From positions 76,882,001-76,946,000 of the forward strand of contig CM059432.1 of NCBI GenBank assembly GCA_030390025.1: a stretch of 64,000 nucleotides of DNA, written 5' to 3'. Source of the stretch: Squalus acanthias. Lineage: Eukaryota. Position 1 is the first letter of the stretch. Each line of letters begins with the position of its first letter. Both the position numbers and the translations under genes were made by a program. Under the pieces are notes generated by a model. That model was not told the DNA's origin, did not search any database, and was given only the letters and a program-made list of their open reading frames with translations. Positions 4,263-59,610 of the stretch are shown one piece after another.

Positions 4263-5089
4263 TGACCCCTCCACGTCCTTCAGATCTGCCCGCAATCTGC
4301 CGACCTCCCCCACTATGCCCCTATCATTCCCTCCCTCCCTCCCTCCTTCCTCACTGTCGTGCTCCAAGCTGTACCTTTTAACAGTACTTTCCATTCCATT
4401 GCCTGGTTGATTCATTGACTAACTATACCAGTTCAGAACTGTATAAAACATTGGCCGGTAAATTCCTTGGAGCTGCTCTTGGTCCTCCGTGTTACTTCAC
4501 CAGAAATGGGGTTTCCGCCATGTTTCTGGTGAAGTAACGCTGGCAGAGCGGGAGAATCTCAGAGGAATTTCCCAGCCATTGGAATGCAAACAGTTAACCA
4601 AATTCTGGACCATTCCATCGTATAGGAGCATAGTTTGAGGAAGAGCTAAATTGCGCCTTATCAGCTAAGCAATCTTGTCAACAACTGGATAGTTGGAGGA
4701 AAATCTGCGTTGGACTCCAGAGACTGTTACATTGTTGACAATTTTCTTGTCCTATCTTTGAAGCGATTCCATTGGGACTGCAGGAAGAAAATAACAGTGA
4801 TGATTGTAAAAGACAGATAGAATAAACTGACAGTGCTTTGGTTACTGCCTATACCCACTATCAGAACTGTCACCCTAGGCCACAGAACCACAAGCTGACA
4901 AGCTGTCATATTCAGACTCAACATAATCAAAACGCATCTTGTCATCATCATGATTTCTGCTCTCTGTGCAGAACAATGCATTTTTTCCAGGTTGTCTTAG
5001 TGTCTGTCTTCATTAATACTTATCCTGCAATGTCTAAAGATTTTCTTCAACATATCATCTGGAATTTCAGCAAAATAATTGTAAGCAGT

Positions 5090-5713
5090 GGGGTGATTTT
5101 CAGGTCCCTCCCATGCCATTGGTTATCCGCCCATTCCGATCTTCGGGGAGACCTCAATCTAGGCAGCCAGAGTTCCCAGAAATAGGCAGGAGCCTCATGA
5201 ATATATGTTAATCAGGGTCAGATGAGGCAGTCACAACCCCTAACATCACTTTCATCTGTGCCTGCCAGATTGCCGCCAATTTCTGCTCCCACCAACTGAA
5301 CAAGGGCAGTAAAATTTGAGAGGTGTCCATTTTTAGCGTTCATTAAAGGGATCCTCAGCTGCAGTCGGGGAAGGCAGGAAGCAGGTCTGGGACTCATATT
5401 TACTGCAGTTAAAGGCTTCCTTATTTAAAAATCCTTGCTGCTGTAGGTGCTACAACAATTTTGCCTGCTATTATAAATTGGTGCTTCCTTTCACTCCCGA
5501 TGCTTCCACCAATCCCCCTTAAGATGCTGCTGCAGACTAGTCAAAATTGGCTGCTCTGCTAGATTTCATGCCCTCCAGATCGGTGAGCTGCCTGCACAGA
5601 GCAGGCTTCATACTGACATTTTACTGAATTAATGTAAATGTAAACCACAAAAATGGCTCAGACCCCACGCCGATTCAGCCCCCTCGATCTATGCTGGAAT
5701 CAAAAATGGCCCC
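5090..5713. mobile_element. Probable degenerate Harbinger-type MITE
   Basis: Imperfect TIRs ggggtgatttt / aaaatggcccc; no clean TSD. Confidence 0.45.
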
Positions 5714-5911
5714 AAGTGTGCTTCTTTTAAATTGGGATACCCGCTTCTTCAATGCCCTCATACCATACCATCGCGGGAGGCCTGAGGAGCATAAATACAG
5801 CGCAGGTGCAGAGAGAGCGGCAGATAACCAAAACAACCACACAGAGAAAAACTGAAGAAGTGATGTACAACCAGCGAGGAGGGTGGAGCCTGAGGCATTA
5901 CAGTTAAGTAT

Positions 5912-6402
5912 TTATGATGGCCTACCTCCTAGGGTTCTAAAAGAGGTGGCTGCAGAGATAGTGGATTCATTGGTAGTGATCTTCCAGAATTCCCGAGATT
6001 CTGGAATGGTCCGAGTGGATTGGAAGGTAGGAGATATAACCCCGCTATTCAAGAAAGGAGAGAGAAAAAATAGAGAACTACAGGCCTGACATCATTCGTC
6101 ATACATGCTGAAATCCATTATTAAGGAAGTGGTAACAGGGCACTTAGAAAATCATAATATGATTAGGCAGAGTCAACATGGTTTTATGAAAGGGAAATCA
6201 GGTTTAACAAATCTATTGGAGGTTTTTGAGGATGTAACTAGCAGGGTAGATAAAGGAGAACCAGTGGTTGTAGTATTTTTGAATTTTCAAAAGGCATTCG
6301 ATAAGGTGCCACATGAAAGGATGTTACACAAGCTAAGGGCTCATGTGGTTGGGGGTAATATATTAGCATGGATAGAGGATTGATTAAAGGACTGAAAACA
6401 GA
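5912..6402 (+). mobile_element. CR1 LINE RT fragment
   Basis: ORFs 5883-6089, 6105-6383 (SQHGFMKGKS, FQKAFDKVPH). Confidence 0.85.
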
Positions 6403-8186
6403 GGACTAGAAATTGGGCTACTGACCGTCACCCGTTTGCGCTGCTATCCTGGCAAAAAATAGCGACCTCCACTCTAGCGGCCTTCTCTGGCGTGGACTCA
6501 GTGGCTGCCATTTTGGTGAGGGCCTTAGCACTGCCGATAGCAGTGCTGGCCCTGGAGATATAAATGAAGAGAACATGATGTTAGTTGGCGTGCAACATCC
6601 CCTTATAAATAAAAATGATGTCAAAATATGCAGTTTTCAGCCCTTACAGTTCAACTACATTCTGAAAAGAAATTAACATTAAAAAGAATTCCCAAATGGG
6701 AGTCTTCAGCTCATAAAGCTGAATTCCCTTCTGCACCTAAAAAAATGGGAAAAGTGCTTTAGCACTAAAACAAATGGCTCAGTAAGCCAGGGAAGGGGCA
6801 CCCAGGGTCTCGCATGCAGCACTCCAGTTTTGTGCAGGGGGTCAACACTGTATGAGAGGTCCTCTACCCACAGAGGCCAGGAGGCTCTCTAGAAAGAAGG
6901 ATGTGGGGCCAGATCATCAAGGCTGTCACTGCCAGCAGTGTCACCCCCACCATCTGGCTCCAGCGCCCAAAGAAGCTTCATGACCTCAGACCATTGGTTC
7001 AGGTCAGTGAATGCATCTTCAAAGGCCGTCTCCAACCAACTGTACCACTAGGTGCATACATTTCTAAATGCACAACTCCCCGCCCCCACAATCACTCATC
7101 TACCAACAATCTGTACCAAACATAAGGCCCACCTCCCATTTCTAGCTTCACCTCACCCCCTTGGAGGAGATGGTGCTGGCCATTCTTGGCAGGGGCATGG
7201 CTGAGCCCTTGGCCAGCAGCGGGGCTGAAAGGATACAAGATGCTGCTATCCTCATACATTATCCTCCTTCTGGCATGCACCTCTTGCTTTCCCGCCCTCC
7301 CCTTACCACAACTCCACCATTGTGCGTTCCTCATTTCACACACTCAAGAAATGCAACCTGCCCAACCAGTGGGTGACCAAGAAGAGGGAGAGAAGAGAAG
7401 AAGAAGAAGAAGAAGAAGATGATAAGGTGTGGGACAAATGTTGAAAGCAGGCGGATGATTCCATCCCAGATATCCCGGCTAGAAAGGGGTTGTCTGGGTT
7501 GCATCTTTCCTTCTGCTTTCTCCTCCTCTGCATCTTCCTCTTCTGCGTCTTCCCCTTCCCTTGCGAGTGGATGCTGTAAATCTGAAATAAAAGCAGAAAG
7601 TGCTGGAAATACTCAACAGGTCAGGCAGCATCTCAACCTGAGACATGAACTCTGTTTCTCTCTCCACGGATGCTGCCTGACTTGCTGAGTTTATCCAGCA
7701 TTTTCTGTCTTCTCAGAGGCCTTCCTTTACCATCTGAGGCCTTGCAAGCATCCAGCAGCACTCCCTGCACACTTAAAAAACTTTTAACATGTTTTGCACC
7801 AAGCCGCTACTTCAATAAAATAAAAAAAAATCCATTCCAAAAGCTTAAATGCAAACTTACCTGAAAGATGTGTGTGTCCCTTTAAGAAGTACTGACAGCG
7901 CCTCTGTCCGTCTGCTGAACACTCGCTTTTCAATGCAAGCTCAGGACCCAGCAGCACTAAGGTAAAAGTTCGCAGACGTGACATCAAGTCCGCGTGTGAC
8001 GTCACCCTTTCTTAATTTACATCTCCAGGGCCAGCGCAGCTATCGGCAGCACTAAGGCCCTCACCAAGATGCCGGCCGCCGAGACCCGAGCCACAGAACC
8101 ACAGAAGGGCGCTAGAGTGGTGGCCGCCATTTGTAGACCGGATCACGGCGCAAACGGATGGTGGTAACTGGGCCAATTTCAAGGCC
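6403..8186 (+). mobile_element. Non-autonomous PIF/Harbinger derivative with decayed Myb/SANT exons
   Basis: TIRs ggactagaaattggg / gccaatttcaaggcc with longer subterminal inverted similarity; interior homologous to 11750-15251 (EEMVLAILG exon, acidic transposase tail on minus strand). Confidence 0.75.
7567..7710. mobile_element. Tiny fold-back Penelope pLTR insertion
   Basis: Two oppositely oriented pieces of the pLTR end (cagaaagtgctggaaatactcaacaggtcaggcagcatc / gatgctgcctgacttgctgagtttatccagcattttctg). Confidence 0.7.
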
Positions 8187-9363
8187 TTTGTCTTTAATAA
8201 TCCTGGCTTCCTCTTAGTGCCCTCTCTATCTCCTTACCTTTCCTTATATTTTCTATGTCCCTCATCGATTTCCTCACACAACATAATGCAATGGCCAGGA
8301 TCCCTAATGCTATCATCTGGGCTATCACCAGTCTCATCTGGAACAATTTAGCCCAAGGTGTAGCTCCACACTAGTGGCTTCTTCCCACCATTCATGATTC
8401 CCAAGTCTCGTGATTGCCTGTTTTATTTGTTTATTATCTTGCAACATATGCACAGTATGTTTTTGCAAAGTTCTTGTTCTGTAGATTATGGATTTAAAGC
8501 AGAGGGATAGAGGGGGTATATACTGTCCATTGTGTGAGATTGCTTGAATCATCTCATTCTCCAAAACCTCCTCACTTGATGTGGGTCATATAATGATGGT
8601 GTACCGGCACCAATGTTTTATCACCGATTTGTGTTTTTCCCAGCTTGAACCACACAGAATCAGTGTATGGGCCATCTTGTTAATCTAACAGTCATAAAAG
8701 CAGCTGTGGTGGTCACACAGTATCTTCCCTTGCCTTTGTAGGCTATATTAGTCCGTCCGTCTTCCCGGAGTCTTAGACTCATCTTACAATTGGGTGATTC
8801 CTCATCAATTATGAACCCGTAGGCTGGAGTGGTATGTTTTCGTACCACATCACACCTACAAACTCAAGTGGTGCCTTTTAGAGTGCAGCACTCTATGTCC
8901 TGTGCTATCCAAGTGCCGCCGTATTCTTTGTATTGTTTATACATCAGGCCTATTCCAGAGTCTTTACTCACTTCGATAGACTTTACTGGGTACACTTCCC
9001 AAGGTGGACTCCCATGCTTTGCTAACAAGATTAGTGCCAGTACCACCGGTATGAGTTCCTCATCCCCGCCCTCATTTTGGAGGGCCAAAAATGCCATTCC
9101 CATCTGGCGCATCATATTATAGTCTATACCTGTGGTTCCTTTGAACCATTTTCTCAGTTATTGTACATGAATAAACAAAGGTATTTAATTACCCTCTATG
9201 TTGTCCAGTCCCTTCTGTACCACATTCATCATAAATGTCGCATAGAGGCTACGCACGACACCTCTAGTAAGATCTTGATTCTGGTTAGCCTCATTGTTTG
9301 CCAATAATCTTTTAAATTGCCTCTTCATTACCTCATCGTGTTCCCACATACTTTCTATAACTA

Positions 9364-10810
9364 CTACAATAGCAAAATACTGCGGATGCTGGAAATCTGA
9401 AATAACAACAGAAAATGCTGGAAATACTCAGCAGGCCAGGCAGCATCCGTGGAGAGAGAAACAGAGTTAACGTTTCAGGTCTGGGACCCTTCATCAGAAC
9501 TGGAAAAAGCTGGAGATGTAACAGATATTAAGCAGGTGCAAAGACAGGGTGGGCGGGGGGGGGGGGGCGGTTTGGTCCATCTCCGACTCTTCCCTTCCCT
9601 TCCTTGACTTCTCCGTCTCCATTTCTGGTGATTGGCTTTCAACAAACATCCACTACAAGCCCACTGACTCCCACAGCTACCTGGACTACACTTCCTCCCA
9701 CCCCGCTTCCTGTAAGGACTCTATTCCATTCTCCCAGTTTCTCTGTCTCCGCCGCGTCTGTTCTGACGATGCCACCTTCCATACCAGTGCTTCCGACATG
9801 GCTTCCTTTTTCCTCAACCGAGGATTCCCCTCTACTGTGGTTGACACGGCCCTTGACCATGTCCGTTCCATTTCCCGCACTTCTGCTCTCACCCCTTCCC
9901 CTCCCTCCCAGAACCACGATAGGGTTCCCCTAGTCCTCACCTTTCACCCCACCAGCCTCCACATTCAACGGATCATCCTCCGCCATTTCCGCCACCTCCA
10001 ACGTGATCCCAGCACCAAACACATCTTCCCCTCACCTCCCCTTTCAGCTTTCCGAAGGGACCGCTCCCACCGCGACATCCTGGTCCACTCCTCAATCACC
10101 CCTAACAGCCCTTCTCCTTTGCCTGGCACCTTCCCATGCAAGCGCAGGAGATGCAACACATACCCTTTTACCTCCTCCCTTCCTACTGTCCAGGGCCCAA
10201 ACACCCCTTCCAGGTGAAACAGTGATTTACTTGTACTTCTTGCAATTTAATATACTGTATTCGCTGCTCACGATGTGGTCTCCTCTACATTGGGGAGACC
10301 GTTTTGCGGAACACCTCCGTTAAGTCCGGAAGGGTGACGCTGAGCTTCTGGTCGCCTGTCACTTTAATTCTCCACTTCACTCCCACTCTGATCTCTCTGT
10401 CCTCGGCCTATTACATTGTTCCAATGAAGCTCTGCGTAAGCTCGTTGAACAGCACCTCATCTTTCGATTAGGTACTTTACAGCCTTCCGGACTCAACATC
10501 GAGTTCAACAATTTCAGACAATAATCCCTGCCCCCATTTTTCATGCTGTATGATTTTGCCATTCCCATTTGCAACATTTTATCTATCCTGCCTCTTACAT
10601 AAGCACAGTATATTCTTTCAATTCCTTCCTCCCCTCCTAACCTCCCCCCACCACCCCCACCGTCTTTGCACCTGCTTAATATCTGTTACATCTCCAGCTT
10701 TTTCCAGTTCTGATGAAGGGTCCCAGACCTGAAACGTTAACTCTGTTTCTCTCTCCACGGATGCTGCCTGGCCTGCTGAGTATTTCCAGCATTTTCTGTT
10801 GTTATTTTAT
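9364..10810 (+). mobile_element. Penelope-like element, 5'-truncated, with inverted pLTR
   Basis: ORF 9549-10217 (LPFLD, YKPTDSHSYL), GIY-YIG remnant YCIRCSRCGLLYIGET; 9399-9545 is the reverse complement of 10662-10807; 12-bp duplication tttctataacta at 9352-9363 and 10811-10822. Confidence 0.92.
10702..10748 (+). ncRNA. Minimal type I hammerhead ribozyme motif in Penelope pLTR (mirror copy on minus strand ~9460-9505)
   Basis: agtt-CTGATGA(10710-10716)-stem II ggtc/gacc-GAAA(10731-10734)-CGTT-aact; agtt/aact forms stem I. Confidence 0.7.
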
Positions 10811-12010
10811 TTTCTATAACTATTCTGTTTACTCCTGCCACACGTGACATCTGATCCAAGCCATTCTCGGGCTTTCAGGTGATCTTATCAAAAGATCGTG
10901 GGCTGTCTGGAGATCTTGCTCATCTCCCCCTGCATGGTCCTGATCTTACGGTTAGTGGCCAAGCTATCAAATGCATTTTTCTTATTGTTCAGTATAGGCA
11001 ATGCCACAAACATCTCCAAAAGAAAGCTTATCAGTTTACTATTCTTAACTATACTTCCATGACTTTCACAAGAATGTACATTAATACCAGATTGTACCAG
11101 GTGATTTATGCCAATTCACCTAAGAAAAATGATATTAGATAAATTCGCATTTGGTGGTGTAATTTCTTCAGAGTATAACGCAGTTTACAAGCAGAGTTTT
11201 GTCAGCAGTTCTGAGTGTAGGCATGCACTCAAAAAGGTTTATCTCTTTTTTCTCTTAACTTACCACAAAAGCTTCTTTTTTATACACTATTTCCTTTATC
11301 AAACTGGAAGTGGCCTTACTTTATTTAGTAGTCTCCGGTCAATGCATTGTCCTTCAGCCAATTTTTACACACACAAGTTTACATTTCTCGTACATCAACA
11401 TCCCCTTGCGTTGGTTTCAATAGTGTATGGTGGGATATTTGTAGTGTGGCAATACTATAAACATCCCAAGGCCTTACTGCAATCTTGAACACTGGCTGAT
11501 GTTAAGTGAAATCTGTACGTCTCTCTCTCTCTCTCTCTTTTTCTCTCACCAATGATGCCAATCACCTTTTTTGCTCTATATTGAATGAACTAAACCTGAA
11601 CACCTTTCAGAAGCCAAATTAACTGAGTTCCATATGCCAACACCTTGTACACAAAACACAGAAAGTTAACATGTAGGTACAGCAAGCAATTAGGAAGGAA
11701 AACAGTACATTGCCCTTTATTGCAAGGGGGTTGAAGTACAAGAGTAAGGGGCATAGAAATTGGTTTCCCTCCAAAAACAGGCACGGGGATCACGATACGC
11801 TAACAACTTGCGCCCGTTCCGAGGACTGCAGGCAGCACGCGAACTTTGTGCTGCCTGCTCATTTTCATGATTGTGGTATCAGCCCAGTGCTAAACACGCT
11901 GCTAAGTGGCTGAACGCTCAACAGAGGCCCAGGTTCATGCGAGTCTAGCACCAATTAAAGCTAGCCTGCACCTGTTAAAGTGGAGGTGCATTCTGCCTGC
12001 AGCAGAATAG

Positions 12011-12229
12011 GGTGCACCAAGGTTCTCCAATGCAGCACTGGAGGCCTTGGTGCAAGAAGTCAATTTGAGGAGAGAGGTCCTCTTTCCACTGGGTGCCAGG
12101 AGGCCCTCCAGGCAACAGACAAAAGTGCAATGGGAGCAAATAGCCAATGTGGTGAATGCCAGCAGTGTTGCCCCGAGGGCATGGACGCAGTACAGGAAGA
12201 AGTTTAATGACCTCACACAAGTGGTCAAG
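12011..12229 (+). pseudogene. Myb/SANT-like DNA-binding domain exon of Harbinger ORF2 (NAIF1/MSANTD-like)
   Basis: APRFSNAALEALVQEVNLRREVLFP...WEQIANVVNA...RAWTQYRKKFNDLTQVVK followed by donor gtcagt. Confidence 0.8.
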
Positions 12230-12663
12230 GTCAGTGAATTAATCTTCAAATGCCTCACACACTGTTCAATGCACCACACCCCCATCACTCATCTACCAAC
12301 AATCTCTACCAAACACCTCACATTCATAGTTTCACCTCACCCTCAAACACTTACCACTGCCCCAAGCCTGACACCTACATCTCACAGCTGGCACACACTG
12401 GAAGCTATTCAACCATGACAGACACATCACCCAAACACATTCCACCACACTCAATGACACAACTCCCTCACACTCAATGACACAATTCCCTTTCTCTTTC
12501 AGGAAAAGGAGGTGCAGAACGGGTGTCAGCAGAACATAACCAGCGGGGGACAGGCTCACCTGCATCATCTCACTCTATTGGAGGAGATGGTGCTGGCCAT
12601 TCTTGCAGAGGCATAGCTAAGTCCTTGGCTAGCGCTGGGGCTGAAAGAGATCCTCATACGTTA

Positions 12664-13940
12664 TGGTAAAAAATCACAGGATTGGGGGTAATATTCTGGC
12701 ATGGATAGAGGATTGGCTATCTAACAGAAAGCAAAGAGTTGGGATAAATGGTTCATTCTCAGACTGGCAATCAGTAACTAGTGGTGTTCCACAGGGGTCA
12801 GTGCTGGGTCCCCAACTCTTCACAATCTATATTAACGATTTGGAGGAAGGGACCAAGTGTAACATATCAAAATTTGCAGATGATACAAAGATGGGAGGGA
12901 AAGTAGTGAGTGAGGAGGACATAAAAAACCTGCAAGGGGACATAGACAGGCTAAGTAAGTGGGCAGAGATTTGGCAGATGGAATACAACACTGGAAAGTG
13001 TGAGGTGATGCACTTTGGCAGGAAAAATCCTAGAGCAATTTATTATCTTAATGGCAAGAAACTGGAGAGTACTGAAGTGCAAAGGGATCTGGGGGTCCTG
13101 GTGCACGAAACTCAAAAGGTTAGTATGCAGGTGCAGCAAGTGATTAAGAAGGCAAATGGAATGTTGGCTTTCATTGCTAGGGGGATAGAATATAAAAATA
13201 GGGAGGTATTGCTTCAGTTGTACAAGGTATTGGTGAGACCGCACCTGGAATACTGCATACAGTTTTGGTGTCCTTACTTAAGGAAAGACATCCTTGCTCT
13301 CGAGGCAGTGCAAAAAAGGTTCACTCGGTTAATCCCGGGGATGAGGGGGTGGTCATATGAGGAGAGGTTGGGTAGATTGGGACTCTACTCATTGGAGTTC
13401 AGAAGAATGAGAGGCGATCTTATTGAAACATATAAGATTGTGAAGGGGTTGGATCGGGTGGATGCGGGGAGGATGTTCCCGATGACGGGTGAGACGAGAA
13501 CTAGGGGACATAGTCTTAGAATAAGGGGCTGCTCTTTCAAAACTGAGATGAGGAGGAACTACTTCACTCAGAGGGTGGTAGGTCCATGGAATATGCTGCC
13601 ACAAAAAGCTGTAGAAGCTACAACATTAATTAAATTTAAAACAGAAATAGACAGTTTCCTAGAAGTAAAGGGCATTAAGGGTTACGGGGAGCGGGCAGGA
13701 ATTTGGACATGAGTCTAGGTTCGGATCGGTCATGGCCCTGTGGGTAGTGGAGCGGGCCCAGGGACTGTGTAGCCTGATTCTGCTCCTATTTCGTGTGTGC
13801 AATTCTGTTAGATGCAGGAGATGGTTCTGTGATAGATAGTAGATTGGCGGTTAGGATCAGATCAGCCATGATCTTATTGAATGGCGGAGCAGGCTCGAGG
13901 GGCCGATTGGCCTACTCCTGCTCCTATTTCTTATGTTCTT
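12664..13940 (+). mobile_element. 5'-truncated CR1 LINE with uninterrupted RT C-terminal ORF
   Basis: 349-aa ORF ([24 protein letters not shown]); 3' stem-loop and atgttctt tail. Confidence 0.95.
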
Positions 13941-16499
13941 ATCCTCCTTCTCTCATCCCACTTCCCCCTCATCCCACAATCTCTTCTGATTTATAAGCTG
14001 CACATGGTGTAAGCATCCGCCTCTTGCTTTTCCACCCTCCCCCCCACCACAACCCTACCCTTGTGCCTTCCTCATTTCAGACACCAAAGAAATCCAGCCT
14101 GCACAGGCAGTGGGTCAACGGGAAGAGGGAGAGGAGAGTGAAGAAGAAGAAGAAGAAGAAGAAACACCGTCACTCGATTTCACACTCCCAGCCACCAGCT
14201 CCTTGAGGTTGTCCTGCAAGGCCATCTGCAGTGTCCCCCACTGCAAGTCAGCAGCCTTCCACCAGCCATGCTGCAGCCACTGGGGTAGCATTACACAACA
14301 TCACCAGGATAGGCAAAGGCACACACAAGACACTCACTAAGGGAATGCACAAGGGTGATTAGTTGATTTCTTGATATAATATTGGATGCATATATGGATA
14401 AAGTTGAATTGGAAGGTTTGCTTTGTGGTGGCTTTTATTTCAGTGTTGTGGTCAAGAGGATGCTGTGATGGTCAGTAACAGAGGGAAGGTATGATGTGGG
14501 ACAAATGTTGAAAGAGGTTCACTGGTACCGCAGGCGGATGATTCGATCCTGGATATCCCAGCCAGAAAGGGGCTGTCTGGGTTGCCTCCTTCCTTCTGCT
14601 TCCTCCTCTTCTGCTTCTTCCCATTCTGTTTCTTCCTCTTTTGCTTCTTCCTCTTGCCTCTGCGAGCAGCTTGTCCCCTTTGCTGCCTCTGCTTCATCTC
14701 CATGTGATCTTGCAGTGCAAGGGGGACAAATAGAGCCCCCAGGACTCTGAGCAAGTGGTCTTCTCAGAGGTCTTCCTTTAACATCCAAAGCCTTGCAAAC
14801 ATCCAGCAGCACTTCCTGCACTCCCTGCACACATTCACAACTTCTTAATGGTATTGCACTGAGCTACTACTCTAATAAATTGTAAAAAAACTCCAAATGC
14901 TGAAATTGAAACTTACCTGAAAGATGTACGTGTCCCTTTAAGAAGCGCTGACAGTGTCTCTGTACAACTGCTGCACACATGTTCTTCCGTGCGTTGTTAG
15001 GAGAGGGCGATATGGAGTGCGGCAACGTCCAAAATCGCAGTCGTGTGTCAATTCAGGCGTTGCACACCGATTGACGTCACGATCTGCATATTTACTTGGG
15101 AGAGGCGAATGCAGGCAACGACAGCGCTACCGACCTCTCCAAAATGGCGGCCGCAATGTTCTGCGCGGGAAGTGGGCAGAAGCGAGGTGGCTGCCATTTT
15201 TTTAACAAAACCGGCCTTAACGCCGGCACAACAACCCCAAATTTCACGGCCATAGAGAGTAAAATGAAACAGAAAAAAAGAGGCATATGATAAATGTCAG
15301 TTTCATAATTCAGTAGAGAACCAAGCTGAGTACAGAAAGTACAGAGAATGTCTGAAAAAAGGGAATAAGAGGGGCAAAGAAAGAGTATGAGAATAGATTA
15401 GCGGCTAACATAAAAGGGAAATCAAAAATCTTTTATGAACATATAAATAGTAAAAGGGTAGTCAAAGGAAGGGTGGGGAAAATTAGGGACCAAAAAGGAA
15501 ATCTTCCTTTGGAGGCAGAGGGTATGGCAGAGATACTAAATAAGTACTTTGCATCTCTCTTCACTAGAGAAGAGGATGCAGCAGTAAAGGAGGAGGCAGC
15601 AGCAATATTTGATAGGATAAAAATGGATAAAGAGGAGGTACCTAAAAGGTTGGCAGTACTCAAAGTAGAAAAGTCACCCAGTCCGGACGGGATGAGAACA
15701 TAAGAATGTAAAAAATAGGAGCAGGGGTAGACCATACAGCCCCTCGAGCCTGCTCCACAATTCAAATAGATCATGGCTGATCTTCAACCTCTAATCCACT
15801 TTCCTGCCCAATCCCCACATTTCTTGATTCTCTTAGAGTCCAAAAATCTATTTATCTCAGCCTTGAATATACTCAACGACTGAGCATCTACAACCCTCTG
15901 GGGCAGAGAATTCCAAAGATTCACAACCCTCTGAGTGAAGAGATTTCTCCTCATCTCAGTCCTAAATAGCCGACCCCTTATCCTGACACTATGCCCCCTA
16001 GTTCTAGACTCTCCAGCCAGGGGAAACAACCTCCCAGCATTTACCCTGTCAAGCCCTCTCAGAATCTAATATGTGTCATTGAGATCACCTCTCATTCTTC
16101 TAAACTCCAGAGAGTATAGGCCCATTCTACTCAATCTCTCCTCATAGGACAACCCTCTCAACCCAGGAATCAATCTAGAGAACCTTTATTGCACCTGTCT
16201 AAGGCAAGTATATCCTTCCTCAGATAAGGAGACCAAAACTGGGCACAGTACTCCAGGTGTGGTCTCACCAAAGCCCTGTACAATTGTAGCAAGACTTCCT
16301 TACTCTTGTACTCCAACCCCCTTGCAATAAGAAAGAAAGATTTATAGAGCGCTTTTCACAACCACCGGATGTCTCAAAGTGCTTTACAGCCAATGAAGTG
16401 CTTTTGAAGTGTAGTCACTGTTGTAATGTTGGAAACATGGCAGCCAATTTGCGCACAGCAAGCTCCCACAAACAGCAATGTGATAATGACCAGATAATC

Positions 16500-19400
16500 T
16501 GTGGTAACACAATACAGCTTCCTGTGACTCGAACTTTATTGCATCACTTCCTGTGATTAGTCCAGGATAAATACTGGACTGATCAGTTGGATCCTGGAGA
16601 GGCATAGAGTAAGACCTCTTTTGTATGTAGCACCTTTTTAGTTGATTAAAGCTTACTTTAAGTTCACCACGCGTAAGGCTCATTCTTATGACAATTTAAT
16701 CAACTTTGGAAAACTTCGCACTCAAACTTTTTGGACGAACTCGGAACTAAGGATTCAGGGAATCACCCATCATGGAAACATCCTTAAACCATCGCGTCTT
16801 GACTTGGACCCAAACACCCCAGCAGCCGGTAAGGTGTGGAAACACTGGTATCACACGTTTGACAATTTCCTTGAATATTGCAAGGCTGATGATGACTCAA
16901 AGTTGCGGATACTCATCAACTGTGTCACCCCGAATGTATTTCAGTATGTGGAGGAATGGGACAGTTACGAGGAGGCAATTCGGACGCTTAAGAGACTATA
17001 TACTAAGACACCGAATGAGGTCTATGCCAGACATCTACTAGCTACAGCCCAACAAGGGCCGGAGGAATCCATTGATAAATTCCTCCAAGAGCTTCGCAGA
17101 CTTAGTATGGACTGTAACTTTCAGGCGGCCTCAGCTGAGCTGTACCGTGAAGAAATGATCCGTGATGCTTTCATCTGCGGGCTTGCCTCCCCATTTATAC
17201 GCCAGCGTCTACTGGAAAGTAAGACACTTGAGCTTCAGAGAGCTTATGACATGGCTTGCTCTCTAGATCTGGCAAAAAGAAATACAGACCTTTATACAGT
17301 GCCCAGACCTCGGTCTACTGCCTTAACTACAGTCAGGCAATTTAAGAGGCCACAGGTGAACTCTATTAGGGAGGTCTTTATCCCTGACGATCAATCTGAT
17401 GACTTCACTGATGAAGAGGATGATGACCCCACTGTGGCAGTCTCTTGGCAATCTAAGAAATGCTTCTTTTGTGGTGATGAGTTTCACCCTCGGAAATTCT
17501 GCCCTGCTCGCAATGCGTTTTGCAGTCATTGCAACAAAAAAGGTCATTTTGCAAAGGTTTGCCTATCAAGAGCCTCTACGAGGGCTTATCAAGCTAAGTC
17601 CTACCGAACTGCCCCGGTAAGGGCTTATCAAGATGTTCCGGCTAACATCTATCGTGCTTCCTCTCGGGTTTCCTCTCGAAGAAACACACCTAGAGTTTCA
17701 GCCACTCTTTGTGCAACGACACCAATTACAGCTGCTTGTCCTCAGAACCTATTCCATGCAGCTACAAAAGCATCAATTAATGGACATACTTTAGATGCCT
17801 TAATTGACTCAGGTAGCACTGATAGTTTCATTAGGGAACAGATTGTTGCAGAGTTAAAGCTACATGTTTTCCCATCGGACCAGGCAGTTGCGATGGCTCA
17901 GTCATCACTTAATACCAGAATTTCTGGCTTTTGTATGGTTGAATAACACTTAATGGTCACAGGTATCCCTCCACCCGGCTTTCGGTGCTCAAGGACTTAT
18001 GTAGTGATCTTATCTTAGGGCTGGATTTTCAAAAGCAGCATAAGAAGCTCACCATTGAGTTCGGCGGATCCAAACCTGAACTCACTATTTCTAATATACT
18101 ACCTCGATTACCGTTCTGTGCATTGTCAGCAGCTTCACTGGATGAACCCTCACTGTTTACCAGTCTCCCTCCTCGATGCAAACCGATTATAACAAAGTCA
18201 CGACGTTTCAGTCAGGAAGACCAGTCTTTTATTGCGGCTGAGATTTCTCGGCTTTTAGCAGAGGATATCATCGAGCCTTGTTCGTCGCCATGGCGCGCCC
18301 AGGTCGTTATTGTTAAGAACCCTCTACAACCTCACAAGAAACGGCTGTGCATTGACTATTCACAGACCATCAATCAATATACGGACTTGGACGCATACCC
18401 ATTGCCGCGCATCGATGATATGGTTAATAAACTGGCTGAGTACACGGTGTTCTCAACATATGATCTGAAAAGTGCTTATCATCAGGTACCCTTGAAGGTC
18501 TCAGACAAGCAGTATACGGCCTTTGAAGCCAATGGACGGCTGTATCAATTTCGTCGCCTCCCCTTTGGGGTCACTAATGGAGTGGCTGTCTTCCAGCGAG
18601 CAATGGATGACCTGGTCAAACAGGAAGACTTGAAGGATACGTTTCCTTATCTGGACAATATTACTGTCGCAGGTCGCAATCAGCGGGAACATGACGCCAA
18701 TCTCCAACGATTTTGGGATGCACTCCAGCACCGTAATTTGACATTAAATGCGGCTAAATCCATTGAGTCACAACCAACCATCAACATCCTTGGCTATTGT
18801 GTGGGCAATGGCATCATTAAACCTGACCCTGAAAGGCTTCGCCCACTCCAAGAACTCCCGCCACCTAAGAATCCGGCCTCCTTGCACCGGGCCCTCGGCC
18901 TGTTTGCATACTATGCTAAATGGATTCCTAACTTCTCGGACCGAATCCAACCTCTACTGAAGGCCAGCACATTCCCACTAGACACAACGGCTGTTGCAGC
19001 CTTTAACCTCCTGAAAAAACAGTTGGAGAAAGCGGCTCTTCACTCCATCGATGAGAGTCTTCCTTTTGTTGTTGAGTGTGATGCCTCGGAGGTGGCGATC
19101 TCGGCCACTCTGAATCAGGAAGGTCGTCCGGTGGCATTTTTGTCCAGGACTTTTCAAGGGGCTGAGCTACATTATCCTCCAGTCGAGAAAGAAGCTACAG
19201 CCATCATAGAGGCAGTACGGAAGTGGAGTCATCTCCTAGCTCGCCAGCACTTTACCTTAATCACGGACCAGCGATCGGTCGCCTTCATGCTCGATAATCG
19301 AAAACGGACCAAAATTAAAAATAATAAAATCCAGCTTTGGCGGCTGGAATTGGCCTCTTTTGGTTACACCATCCACTATCGACCTGGCAAGGAGAATGTG

Positions 19401-20938
19401 GCTCCGGATACCCTCACATGAGCATTCTGCTCCGCCATGGCACCCTCTACGCTCGTAGACATCCATGATGGGTTGTGTCATCCGGGCGTTACTCGCATGC
19501 TACACTTCGTGCGGTCCCGAAATCTCCCATTCTCTACCGAGGATATAAAGAAGATGTGCTCGGACTGCAGAGTCTGTGCGGAATTGAAACCTCAGTTTTT
19601 CCGCCCCTCGGGTGGTATACTCATACATGCGACCCAGCCAATGCAACGGCTTAGCATCGATTTTAAGGGGCCGTTGCCCTCTTCAACTCGCAACACTTAT
19701 CTGTTGACCATGGTCGATGAGTATTCCCGTTTTCCGTTTGCCTTTCCCTGCCCCAATATGCTGACGACCACGGTTATCAGCTGCCTTGAGCAGGTATTTG
19801 CTTTCTGTGGCATGGCATCCTATGTTCATTCGGATCGGGGCCCTTCTTTTATGTCAGGAGAACTCAAGGCCTATCTCTCGGAACGGGGTATTGCTGCCAG
19901 CAGAACGACGCCTTATCATCCGGTCGGGAATGGGCAAGTCGAGCGTTTTAACGCTATCATCTGGAATGCGGTACGTCTGGCTTTGAGATCTCGGGGCCTA
20001 CCCAACCAGCAATGGGAAGCAGTACTTCCAGACGCATTACACTCCACACGGTCCCTCCTTTCGACCGCCACAAATACGACGCCTCATGAACGGTTCTTCC
20101 GATTTCAGCGTCGCTCATCCTATGGGATATCTCTCCCATCGTGGCTGAATACACCGGGACCAGTGCTACTCCGAAGATATGTCCGGGCGTCTAAGAATGA
20201 CCCCCTGGTAGATGAGGTTGAGCTCACTGACGTCAACCCTACCTACGCCTATATTCGGTATCCTGACGGTCGGGAATCTACCGTGTCATTGCGGGATCTG
20301 GCTCCCTGCCCGCCGAAACATAGAGGGACACCAGGGGATGATATTGTACCAGGCACATCTCTGGGCTCGCCAGGTGCCTCTCATCACGATCTGGATCTGA
20401 CGCCGGCTGGTACCTCACTCCAGCGTGCCGACCTGGGGCAGACTGACTATGAGCCCGTCGGGGCTCGCACGCGCAGCCACGATCCACCCCGTACCGTACG
20501 CTCAGAAACGGATCTGCCACAGCCCTGCCCGACAGCCGTTCGGGCACCAGTACACAGTCAGGATCGTCCTGACCCCTCACAGAGCGGGCTGGATCACTCG
20601 GACTCTGGTCCACGGCCCGCGGCAGGTAAACGGGCTAGGGGCCCTCTACCGCTACGAGAACCCAAACGGGTGCGGCTCTCCCTCGTCCAGCGGCTACGAA
20701 ATGGAGGGAGCATCCCGGCCTCCTAATCTTTTGGGGGGGTAGAATGTGGTAACACAATACAGCTTCCTGTGACTCGAACTTTATTGCATCACTTCCTGTG
20801 ATTAGTCCAGGATAAATACTGGACTGATCAGTTGGATCCTGGCGAGGCATAGAGTAAGACCTCTTTTGTATGTAGCACCTTTTTAGTTGATTAAAGCTTA
20901 CTTTAAGTTCACCACGCGTAAGGCTCATTCTTACAACA
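16500..20938 (+). mobile_element. Near-intact Ty3/Gypsy LTR retrotransposon (Mag-like)
   Basis: 194-bp LTRs 16500-16693 and 20745-20938 (TG...CA, 3 mismatches); 5-bp TSD TAATC; PPT gggggggtagaa; order gag-PR-RT-RH-IN. Confidence 0.97.
16772..20726 (+). pseudogene. gag-pol: gag-pol polyprotein with about three lesions
   Basis: Two zinc knuckles CFFCGDEFHPRKFCPARNAFCSHCNKKGHFAKVC, protease ALIDSGS, RT YLDN, RNase H VECDAS, integrase HHCC and SIDFKG/HSDRG/GQVER; frameshifts ~16778 and ~17943, TGA at 19419. Confidence 0.92.
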
Positions 20939-21441
20939 TAATCTGTTTAGTGATGTTGATTGAGGGATAAATATTGTCCAGGACACTGGGGATAACTCCC
21001 CTGCTCTACTTCTGTCATAGGATCTTTTACGTCCACCTGAGTGGGCAGACGGTTTAACATCTCATCCGAAAGACGGCACCTCTGACAGTGCAGTGCTCCC
21101 TCATTATTGCACTGGAATGTCAGCCTAGATTTTTGTGCTCAAGTCTCTGGAGTGGGACTCGAACCCACAGCCTTCTGACTCATATGTTAATAAAGGCCAA
21201 CATACCATTTGCCTTCCTAATTGCTGGCTGTACCTGCATGTTAACTTTCTGTGTTTCGAGTACAAGGACACCCAAATCCCTCTGAACACCAACAGTTAAT
21301 AGTTTCACGCCATTTAAAAAATATTCTGTTTTTCTATTCTTCCTACCAAAATGAATAACCCCAAATTTCCCCACATTATACACCATCTGCAACCTTCTTG
21401 CCCACCAACATAACCTGTCTATATCCCTTTGCAGACTCTTT

Positions 21442-23954: not shown

Positions 23955-26692
23955 ATCGTTTCAGCCTGTTCTTGCCCCACGGAACTGATTTCCTCCTGTC
24001 TCGACTCTATTTATTCTCCCCTTGTCCAGTCTCTTCCCACCTACATTCGCGACTCATCCGACGCCCTCCGCCACTTTAACAGTTTCCAGTTTCCTGGCCC
24101 CAACCATCTCCTTTTCACTATGGACGTCTAAACCCTCTACACCTCCATCCCCCACCAGGACGGCCTGAGGGCGCTCCGCTTCTTCCTTGAACTGAGGCCC
24201 AGCAGTCCCCTTGCACTACCGTCCTCCTCCACCTGGCTGAACTTGTTCTCACATTGAACAACTTCTCCTTTGATTCCACTTACTTCCTCCAAATTAAGGG
24301 CGTTGCTATGGAAACCCGCATGGGTCCGAGCTATGCCTGCCTTTTCGTGGGATATGTGGAATATTCTTTGTTCCAGTCCTACTTGGGTCCCCTCCCTCAC
24401 CTCTTTTTCCGGTACATTGATGACTGTATCAGTGCCGTTTCCTGCTCTCGCCCTGAACTAGAAAATTTCATTCACTTTGCTTCCAATTTCTACCTTTCCC
24501 TCACCTTCACATGGTCCATCTCTGACTCTTCCCTTCCCTTCCTCTAAATCTCTATCTCCATTTCTGGGGATAGGCTATCGACGAACATCCACTATAAGCC
24601 CACTGACTCCCACAGCTACCTGGACTACACTTCCTCTCACCCCGCTTCCTGTAAGGACTCTATTCCATTCTCCCAGTTTCTCCGTCTCCGCTGCATCTGT
24701 TCTGACGATGCCACCTTCCATACTAGTGCTTCCGATATGTCTTCCTTTTTTCTCAACCGAAGATTCCTCTCTACCATGGTTGACACGGCCCTCGACCGTG
24801 TCCGTTCCATTTCCCGCACTTCTACTCTCACCCCTTCCCCTCCCTCCTAGAACCACGATAGGGTTCCCCTTGTCCTCACCTTTCACCCCACCAACCTCCA
24901 CATTCAACAGATCATCCTCCGCCATTTCCCCCACCTCCAACGTGACCGCACCACCAAACACATCTTCCCCTCCCCTCCCCTTTCAACATTCCAAAGGGAC
25001 CACTCCGTCCACGACACCCTGGTCCACTCCTCAATCAACACCAACAGCCCCTCCCCTCCCCACAGCACCTTCTCGTGCAAGCGCAGGAAATGCAACACCT
25101 GCCCTTTTATCTCCTCCCTTCCCACTGTCCAGGGCCCCAAACACTCCTTCCAGGTGAAACAGCAATTTACTTGTACTTCTTGCAATTTAGTATACTGTAT
25201 TCGCTGCTCACGATGTGGTCTCCTCTACATTGGGGAGACCAAACGCAGATTGGGCGACCATTTGCAGAACACCTCTGTTCAGTCCGTAAGGGGGACCCCG
25301 AGCTTCCGGTCGCCTGTCACTTTAATTCTCCGCTCCACTCCCACTCTGACCTCTCTGTCCTCGGCCCCTTACACTGTTCCAATGAAGCTCAACATAAGCT
25401 CGAGGAACAGTACCTCATCTTTCGATTAGGAATCGAGTTCAACAATTTCAGACCATAACCTCTGCCCCTATTTTTTCAGGAGGCAGCTGTTGATGATTCT
25501 GCCATTCCCCATTTGCAACATTTAACCACTCATGCCTTCCATCTATTACAGACTGTCCCTTTTGTTCTTTCCACCCCTCCCCCACTTTCCCTGCCCCTGC
25601 ACCTGGTTAAAATCTGTTACATCTCTAATTTTTTCTAGTTCTAATGAAGGGTCACAGACCTAAAACATTGGGCTCGATTTTCCCAGCCCCGAGGAGGCGG
25701 GTTTGTAGGCGTGCGAGTTGTTAAACTCGCCAAAACTGGCGGGCGGGCTCGTTCCCGCCTCCATCCCACCTCCGAACAATTTTCCCAAGTGCGTGTTTTC
25801 TGACCCGCTTTCCATCCCACCTCCAAGAGGCGGAATAGGCCCTTAAGGCCCTTAACAACCACTTAATTGCCTCTATAATCCCATTTTGAGAGGCCTTTCC
25901 GGTTTTAGCACATTTCCCCCATCCTACATGCCTCCTCTGGAACACGCCAGGTAATCCTGGCGGCCTCACTAGTGGATTGCTTACGAACAGCTGCAGCTCC
26001 ACCATTACAAAGGAGTTTTCACCGATGATCATTTGCAGGTGGCAGAACTTTGTTGTTTCAGGTCTGGGGGAACTTTTAGCAGGCATACTCAGTGTTGTGG
26101 AAGTTTGGAGCCTGACACCCATCTCCAGTGTGACCTCCTTGGAAACCCCTCTCCCTACCTTGACTAAGCGCTTCCTCAACTGAGGCATATACCAGAAGCA
26201 TGGCGACCATTTAATTCCTTTCCTCCTGGACATCAGATTCGGATGAAGACCAGCTGCGGCAGCAGCAGAACCATGAGCAACAGCTGCACCAACAGCAGGA
26301 ACATCAACAGGAGCGCCAAGCTGCTAGTCACCCACCTGAAGATGCACAGGCCAGAAGGCGCCAGAGCACCACCATATTGCTGCCCGGGATGCAAGGGACG
26401 CACTCATGTTGGTCACATTTGCTTAGCCTGCACAATCAAACAGTTTAGCCTCGCACCTTCTTACCAGAGCATCGACAATGGACAAGAACCTACGGATTCC
26501 TCTCACTCTGACCACCACACTGACAATTGCAAGTCGCCCTAAGCCCTCAATGTGGAAGTCCCATTAGCGAAATGACACATGCCACAACTGCAACAGTTTG
26601 CCATCAGAATTTTTTATGACAATAAGCAACTGATGGCTTCTCAAAATTAAACACATTACACCCAAGTGACAACCCTTGTGACTACTTGTGCA

Positions 26693-33811: not shown

Positions 33812-34236
33812 TCAGCACTCTGAGCTGTGAGTCAGAAGGTTACAGGTTCTAGTCCCACTGAGCACATAATCTAGGCAGACACTCCAATGCAGTACTGAGG
33901 GAGAGCTGCACTGTGCCGTCTTTTGGATGTGACATTAAACCAAGGCCCTGTCTGCCCTCTCAGGTGGGCAGTAAAAGATCCCATGGCACTGTTTGAACAA
34001 GATCAGGGGAGCTCTCCCTGGTATCCTGGCCAACATTTATCCCTCAATTAACATCAGTTAGGTATCTGGTCATTATCTCATTACTGTTTGTGGGGCCTTG
34101 CTGTGTGCAAATTGGCTGCCACATTTCCTCCATTACAACAGTGACTACACTTCAAAAGTACTTCATTGGCTGTAAAGCGCTTTGAGACGTCCTGAGGTCA
34201 TGAAAAAGCGCTACATAAATAGAAGTTTTTCTTTCT
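33812..34236 (+). mobile_element. Deu-domain SINE (SacSINE1-like)
   Basis: tRNA-like head, core taaaagatcccatggcact...cctggccaacatttatccctc, tail ending (tttc)n. Confidence 0.8.
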
Positions 34237-59155: not shown

Positions 59156-59610
59156 AAAGAAAGACTTGCATTTATATAGTGCCTTTCATGACCTCAGGAC
59201 ATCCCAAAGTGATTTACAGTCAATGAAATACTTTTGAAGTGTAGTTACTGTTGTAATGTAGGAAATGTGGCAGCCAATTGCACAGAGCAAACTCCGTTTT
59301 ATCACAAACAATGTGATAATGACCAGATAATCTATTTTTTTTTGTTATGTTGACTGAGGGATAAATATTGGCCAGGACACTGGGGGTAACTCCCCTGCTC
59401 TTCTCCGAAATAGTGCCATGGGATCTTTTACATCCACCTGAGAGAGCGGACGGGGCCTCGGTTTAATGTCTCATCTGAAAGACAGCACCTCTGACAGTGC
59501 AGCACTCCCTCAGCACTGCACTGGATTGTCAGCCTAGATTTCTGAGCTCAGGTCTCTGAACCCACAAACCTTCTGACTCAGAGGCGAGAGTGCTACCACT
59601 GAGCCATGGC
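59156..59610 (-). mobile_element. Near full-length Deu-domain SINE (SacSINE1-like)
   Basis: Minus strand starts gccatggctcagtggtagcactctcgcctctgagtcagaagg (tRNA-like A box), then Deu core and (cttt)n tail. Confidence 0.85.

Follow-up and report, generated by a model that had tools for sequence, protein, structure and literature searches.

An LTR-complementary primer-binding site that covaries across a Gypsy lineage and may support tRNA-independent self-priming

A Gypsy element in the window, that is, in the whole 64-kb stretch of DNA that was analysed, carries directly behind its 5' LTR a candidate primer-binding site (PBS) that is complementary to a segment of the same LTR. Across related families the pairing is kept, its position is fixed 1 nt past the LTR, the two arms covary, and the TGG of a tRNA-type site is absent. 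The arm/PBS pairing is a real, lineage-wide feature and would represent a variant of a known mechanism. Judging from these sequences and by analogy with the retrotransposon Tf1, the best explanation is that minus-strand synthesis is primed by RNA derived from the LTR and not by a tRNA, and we consider this likely.

The element spans positions 16500-20938 (4,439 nt) on the plus strand and is flanked by a target-site duplication, TAATC, at 16495-16499 and 20939-20943. The 5' LTR (16500-16693) and the 3' LTR (20745-20938) are 194 nt each, begin with TG and end with CA, and have three differences between them. At adjacent bases the copies read TG and CA (16689-16690 versus 20934-20935), a pattern that seems typical of CpG decay. 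All internal features lie on the plus strand. Open reading frames and Pfam matches place gag, with a double CCHC knuckle, and the start of the protease at 16772-17946, and the end of the protease, the reverse transcriptase (RT) with the catalytic motif YLDN, and RNase H at 17943-19421. The integrase, with H2C2 and rve domains and with neither a chromodomain nor a GPY/F motif, occupies 19422-20726, and a polypurine tract (20733-20744) precedes the 3' LTR. Pfam recognized protease, RT, RNase H, and integrase in the Gypsy order, and the best match among solved structures was Ty3 RT. The TG...CA LTRs, the target-site duplication, and the pol order PR-RT-RH-IN are the characters of Ty3/Gypsy elements (Metaviridae). 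The insertion splits a host repeat, and copies of this repeat at about 33860-34220 and at 59170-59549 are continuous across the site. The copy in the window is broken at three places, by two frame changes and one stop. The first frame change is immediately 3' of the putative ATG at 16772, the second is near 17945, and the in-frame stop is at 19419-19421. In contigs assembled in public runs, the word depth over the element is about 130-1,550, pointing to a multi-copy family. Elsewhere in the window, a retroelement fragment at 24191-25429, which we take to be probably Penelope-like, has a weak GIY-YIG match (E 9e-4, below the Pfam cut-off), and a second copy of this fragment lies near 10000-10740.

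The predicted PBS at 16695-16705 (TTTAATCAACT) begins 1 nt past the end of the 5' LTR and is the exact reverse complement of the LTR arm at 16640-16650 (AGTTGATTAAA), the predicted self-primer of 11 nt; a second copy of this arm is at 20885-20895 in the 3' LTR. An earlier note on this DNA had described the complementarity, and its description was accurate in each detail: no TGG stands behind the 5' LTR, the arm contains an ATTAAA poly(A)-type hexamer (16645-16650), and the pairing halts at both ends, with the mismatches T16639/T16706 outward and G16651/A16694 inward. The 44-nt loop between the arms (16651-16694) consists of the rest of R, U5, and the 1-nt spacer. No tRNA genes were found in the 64-kb window. 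When the region is folded, pairing probabilities are close to 1 for most of the 11 pairs and 0.44 for the innermost, and positions 16635-16639 can pair with 16709-16713 past a 3-nt bulge. The 11-bp duplex of this element is weak by itself (-9.9 kcal/mol), and the fold of 16640-16780 is not more stable than its shuffles (z 0.38). In the public runs X1 and X5, a contig with a variant LTR (corresponding to window positions 16559-16693) has an extra A just 5' of 16640, which would stretch the duplex to 12 bp. For the single copy, a chance match in A+T-rich DNA has to be weighed. When the LTR was shuffled with its dinucleotides kept, 5 of 20,000 shuffles reached a match of at least 11 bp. Sliding pseudo-LTRs within the window reached it at 65 of 21,250 positions, which speaks for chance; the relatives decide this question.

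The best 120 relatives, taken by protein, have RT-RH identities of 54-75%, and many of them are single ORFs of about 1,200 aa, long and intact. The hosts of the named relatives are shrimps, a copepod, corals, an anemone, a tunicate, and a nematode, and no relative was found in viral contigs, which were scanned twice. DNA was at hand for 80 metagenome loci and 11 genome loci. Together with the window element, these 91 loci yielded 39 in which a recognizable gag start is preceded by 200 nt or more. Of the 39 loci, 29 carry a perfect inverted repeat of at least 10 bp whose right arm lies at most 110 nt upstream of gag; none of 156 control stretches inside gag does. The other 10 loci had less than 10 bp, and most of these misses were duplexes broken by one or two mismatches. 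Four loci (L015, L029, L034, and L076) were added from eight with shorter upstream DNA, and they were chosen because arms were already visible in them. The resulting 43 loci clustered into 25 families, and 22 of these were analysed. Three were left out: L014 because its PBS is missing, L070 because it is bulged, and L084 because it is degraded. L014 had been a candidate for a family with a TGG site and was rejected, since its PBS is missing and its LTR end runs into the gag ATG. In L070 (about 110-200), a few unpaired bases lie between the LTR end and a perfect duplex of 13 bp. At the end of L010 and in L021, the PBS follows the downstream LTR copy, a layout that reflects a collapsed assembly, an LTR circle, or a tandem element; L010 contains a further arm/PBS pair, which was left out of the counts.

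The earlier note had named covariation of the two 11-mers in related families as a check, and the covariation is present. Numbered so that positions -11 to -1 correspond to 16640-16650, the arm pairs with the PBS at 237 of 242 positions in the 22 families, and this percentage, like the others given here, leans high because the copy with the best pairing stands for its family and because the anchor was chosen to maximise pairing over 16 positions; two families were re-anchored before the counts. Combinations of an arm from one family with a PBS from another pair at only 7.9 of 11 positions on average. The observed total was reached in none of 20,000 permutations, a count that is no strict probability since the families are related. 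Among the 22 families there are 18 distinct 11-mers, each matching its own LTR, and none of the families has a TGG site. The PBS starts 1 nt past the end of the 5' LTR in all 18 loci in which two LTRs were found. In 12 of these 18, a target-site duplication (5 bp in 11 of them) fixes the LTR end, and the 1-nt register is independent of the pairing-maximising anchor. Register and pairing are kept in the 22 families. Since the register and the covariation persist even where RT identity is as low as about 40%, the explanation by chance is already refuted, and we give it practically no weight.

The family-specific 11-mers also bear on a host RNA as the primer. The partner of the PBS might be a host RNA, for instance an internal piece of a tRNA, with only a secondary match to the LTR; certain Copia lineages prime with half-tRNAs (an excerpt of PMC6317226). 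A single conserved host RNA cannot produce 18 different 11-mers that each match their own LTR, and this explanation is therefore highly unlikely. Other Gypsy elements served as controls. RNase H matches in three host-contaminated assemblies marked out 40 regions, which contained 37 RT-RH regions of other lineages, and a flanking repeat pair was recognized in 21 control elements. A TGG site, of five types, follows in 19 of the 21, and the self-complement is at most 7 in all 21; the control elements are often near-copies and so amount to about five lineages effectively. The bacterial species genomes G001, G002, G003, and G004, which lie behind L083, L085, L086, and L089, contain 93, 10, 130, and 4 matches to the retrotransposon RNase H family. 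These genomes are heavily contaminated by eukaryotic DNA, probably that of hosts. In contig C188 of G003, four RNase H matches about 4.9 kb apart (4604-19610) make up a retroelement tandem array.

The composition of the arm is conserved at its outer end. Position -11 is A in 18 of the 22 families, -10 is G in 20, and -9 is a pyrimidine in all 22. The AG at -11/-10 was also considered as a splice acceptor. The base that follows it is T or C in all 22 families and never G, an A at -12 occurs in just 6, and the pairing continues across the AG. Judged by these three features, the AG would fit an initiator-like element better than a splice acceptor. Upstream of the arm there was no TATA-like signal at a constant distance, and the contig ends of the relatives' loci showed neither poly(A) tails nor shared starts. 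The loop is 24-54 nt long and opens with GCC in 14 of the 22 families.

Pairing extends beyond the 11-nt core in most families. Positions -12 to -16 pair in 19, 19, 18, 16, and 13 of the 22 families, and from -17 on the pairing is at background. There are 0 to 8 extra perfect pairs beyond -11 (median 4), so that the duplex is 11-19 bp long depending on the family. Nineteen families have some extra pairs, and the window element, L021, and L060 have none. Past the first mismatch, 12 pairs were observed of 66, against 19.9 expected, which is not above background. The covarying pairs at -12 to -16 would also be consistent with a partner in the 3' LTR copy (the U3 end and R). The RNA would then circularise, and the primer would be cut from the 3' end or strand transfer would be helped. 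Given a start at -11, the bases beyond it exist in the 3' copy only, and the longer duplex would be more stable. However, pairing ends at 11 in three families, that of the window element included, starts further upstream that differ by family explain the same data more simply, and the 5' and 3' copies of the arm have the same DNA sequence, which gives no reason to prefer the 3' copy. We regard a 3' partner as unlikely.

If priming is by the 5' copy of the LTR arm, the steps may be drawn by analogy with Tf1. Transcription would start at 16640 or a few bases 5' of it, and the 5' end of the RNA would fold back onto 16695-16705. The RNase H of the element would cut after 16650, that is, between 16650 and 16651. 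Since the 3' end of the arm pairs with the first base of the PBS, a cut at this site would give a primer pointing into U5, and its freed 3'-OH would be extended across U5 and R. The paired arm would have a second effect. Positions -6 to -1 read AATAAA or ATTAAA in 17 of the 22 families, and because the arm usually ends on this hexamer, the poly(A) signal of the 5' LTR would also be concealed by pairing. A hairpin is known to mask this signal in retroviruses, and the duplex might likewise do nothing but hide the signal against premature termination, another primer being used. Such masking does not need a right arm placed exactly 1 nt past the LTR in every two-LTR locus, nor does it account for the rarity of G-U pairs in the core (one in 242 positions), and it would leave the element without a primer site. 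Families that lack a canonical hexamer still pair; L076, which has TGAAGA instead, keeps its arm/PBS pairing, so masking is not the whole story. Masking as the only function is unlikely.

Under self-priming from the LTR, the primer may be copied back into the PBS in every cycle, and this would account for runs of purely Watson-Crick pairs that break off abruptly. The start of each family would then lie at the end of its perfect run, at 16640 in the window element. A start at 16640 fits the window family, in which the perfect pairing stops there, together with the conserved A at -11 and G at -10. On the other hand, a single start at -11 leaves the pairing beyond -11 in 19 of the 22 families unaccounted for, and thus a single fixed 11-nt primer is not established. 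The proposal of tRNA-independent self-priming made in the earlier note gains strong support from the fixed-register covariation and from the tRNA-type controls. As for the copying back, a passage of PMC7472051 states that retroviruses copy their primer into the PBS and that Ty3 does not. For Tf1, the primer has been described as copied into the PBS in part. Since Ty3 does without it, copy-back has precedents in retroviruses and partly in Tf1, and not in all Gypsy elements.

The self-priming mechanism of Tf1 has an 11-nt core, and in the Tf1/sushi group the PBS is complementary to an LTR segment and the tRNA site is absent (excerpts of PMC7175516 and PMC4600332). As in Tf1 and Tf2 of Schizosaccharomyces pombe, Tj1, and the Tf1/sushi chromoviruses, the PBS of the window element lies directly behind the 5' LTR and is complementary to its own LTR. 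The 11-nt core, the lack of a tRNA site, and the geometry, in which the 3' end of the arm is opposite the first base of the PBS, are all shared with Tf1. According to part of bioRxiv 2022.12.06.519325, Tf1 priming needs a three-duplex 'pretzel'. In contrast, we found no support for a pretzel fold in the 22 families, as its flanking duplexes were not enriched (163 of 1,000 and 853 of 1,000 shuffles reached the observed mean). A conserved stem beside the presumed cut was also tried; its pairing probability was about 0.7 versus 0.5, but 84 of 1,000 shuffles reached it on retest and the result was marginal. Also unlike Tf1, the lineage has a duplex whose length varies with the family and which usually ends on the poly(A) hexamer.

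Further differences from the Tf1/sushi group lie in the proteins. The earlier note had seen no chromodomain, and Pfam agrees: Chromo, SH3_Tf2-1, and Ty3_capsid had no match in the window element or in any of the 40 aligned members. Moreover, the lineage has a Mag-type double-knuckle gag and a YxDN motif in most of its RTs. The RT-RH of the window element scored 179 bits against Ty3, and the RT-RHs of three tRNA-primed non-chromoviruses scored 211, 293, and 317 bits against the same reference. The lower score of the window element argues indirectly against a chromovirus RT, but a long branch also lowers such scores. A position outside Tf1/sushi, as the earlier note proposed, is thus favoured by the markers (no chromodomain, double knuckle), while the RT-RH tree holds no chromovirus and the case is not the first one predicted. 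The catalytic motif is of the YxDN type in 90 of the best 120 relatives and of the YxDD type in 19, and 11 have neither; the set includes long intact ORFs. We found no paper in the literature searched that links YLDN to a gypsy reverse transcriptase.

The element had also been called Mag-like. As claimed, the gag ORF shows a double zinc knuckle, and the same pattern occurs in 81 of the best 120 relatives. With two CCHC knuckles, no chromodomain, no env, and short LTRs, the window element resembles the Mag cluster (Mag, SURL, and kin). Leaving aside a match on the other strand of L129 and one to the unplaced L133 (5e-30), which is probably a degraded member of the self-pairing lineage, the best outgroup matches of the gag profile are elements with the Mag marker, L128 (2e-12) and L147 (4e-12). 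The integrase and the RT are less Mag-like. The marker table of PMC2774666 assigns GxV/I to Mag and gives the GPY/F motif as lost in Cigr-1. At the GPY/F site, in a register set by eye, the window element reads D-E-V, L128 G-V-V, and L147 G-I-I, so that by eye the window integrase has neither GPY/F nor GxV/I. In addition, the Mag-marker elements sampled here have TGG-type PBSs, unlike the window element.

An RT-RH tree was built with IQ-TREE from 38 of 62 rows. It is unrooted, without a chromovirus or a named reference, and it omits near-copies and some ingroup rows; in five families the RT piece was too short. A 100/100 branch about 0.8 long separates the self-pairing group from all other rows, and at a 96/97 branch this group falls on the same side as the double-knuckle, GxV-bearing TGGCGACGAG group. 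L147, the second Mag-marker element, has a long branch in another part of the tree. The RT phylogeny, which the earlier note had named as a check, thus puts the lineage on the same side of the 96/97 branch as one Mag-marker group and gives it a long separate stem of its own, with L147 apart; the label Mag-like holds for gag, and the integrase lacks the Mag marker in the by-eye register. Cigr-1, an element of Ciona intestinalis, is about 4.2 kb with one ORF and is similar in size to the window element. The window element has the whole marker set of Cigr-1, namely two CCHC knuckles, loss of GPY/F, no chromodomain, and no env (marker table of PMC2774666), and some Osvaldo elements have the same set. 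One relative comes from a tunicate, the host group of Cigr-1. A table of PMC6238403 lists Cigr-1 under Mag. Taking the gag matches, the tree, and the marker table together, the element is Mag-related in gag and probably near Mag in RT; these sequences would not allow it to be filed as Mag, and it is possibly Cigr-1-like.

In the full-text literature, coverage of which does not extend to Repbase reports, we found no description of self-priming in such a lineage, and an earlier mention in Repbase reports or older papers is quite possible. Self-priming has been predicted for the TAR (Houba/Osr-1) Ty1/Copia elements of plants by the same criterion, at least 10 bp of complementarity starting 0-5 nt behind the LTR (excerpt of PMC6317226); the superfamily and the host kingdom differ from ours. 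Because of this prediction, self-priming outside Tf1/sushi is not new in itself. We advance a fuller proposal tentatively, as a possibility that we hold with less than even confidence: self-priming may have originated independently of Tf1/sushi in a widespread, Mag-related Gypsy lineage of animals. A single hairpin would serve as both primer and poly(A) mask and would be cut right after the hexamer, the pretzel would not be needed, the family-specific primer of 11-19 nt would be copied into the PBS, and the RT would be mostly of the YxDN type.

Tf1 has been shown to prime itself, and self-priming is regarded as a hallmark of the Tf1/sushi chromoviruses. The fixed register in the present lineage leads to exact, testable predictions of the start and the cut. 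If the proposal is true, a large animal lineage outside the chromoviruses uses self-priming with a different RNA design, and the mechanism would have arisen repeatedly in Gypsy elements or would be older than thought; that tRNA priming came late has been proposed (excerpt of PMC3601003). Such elements would evade control by tRNA fragments, and annotation based on the PBS would miss them.
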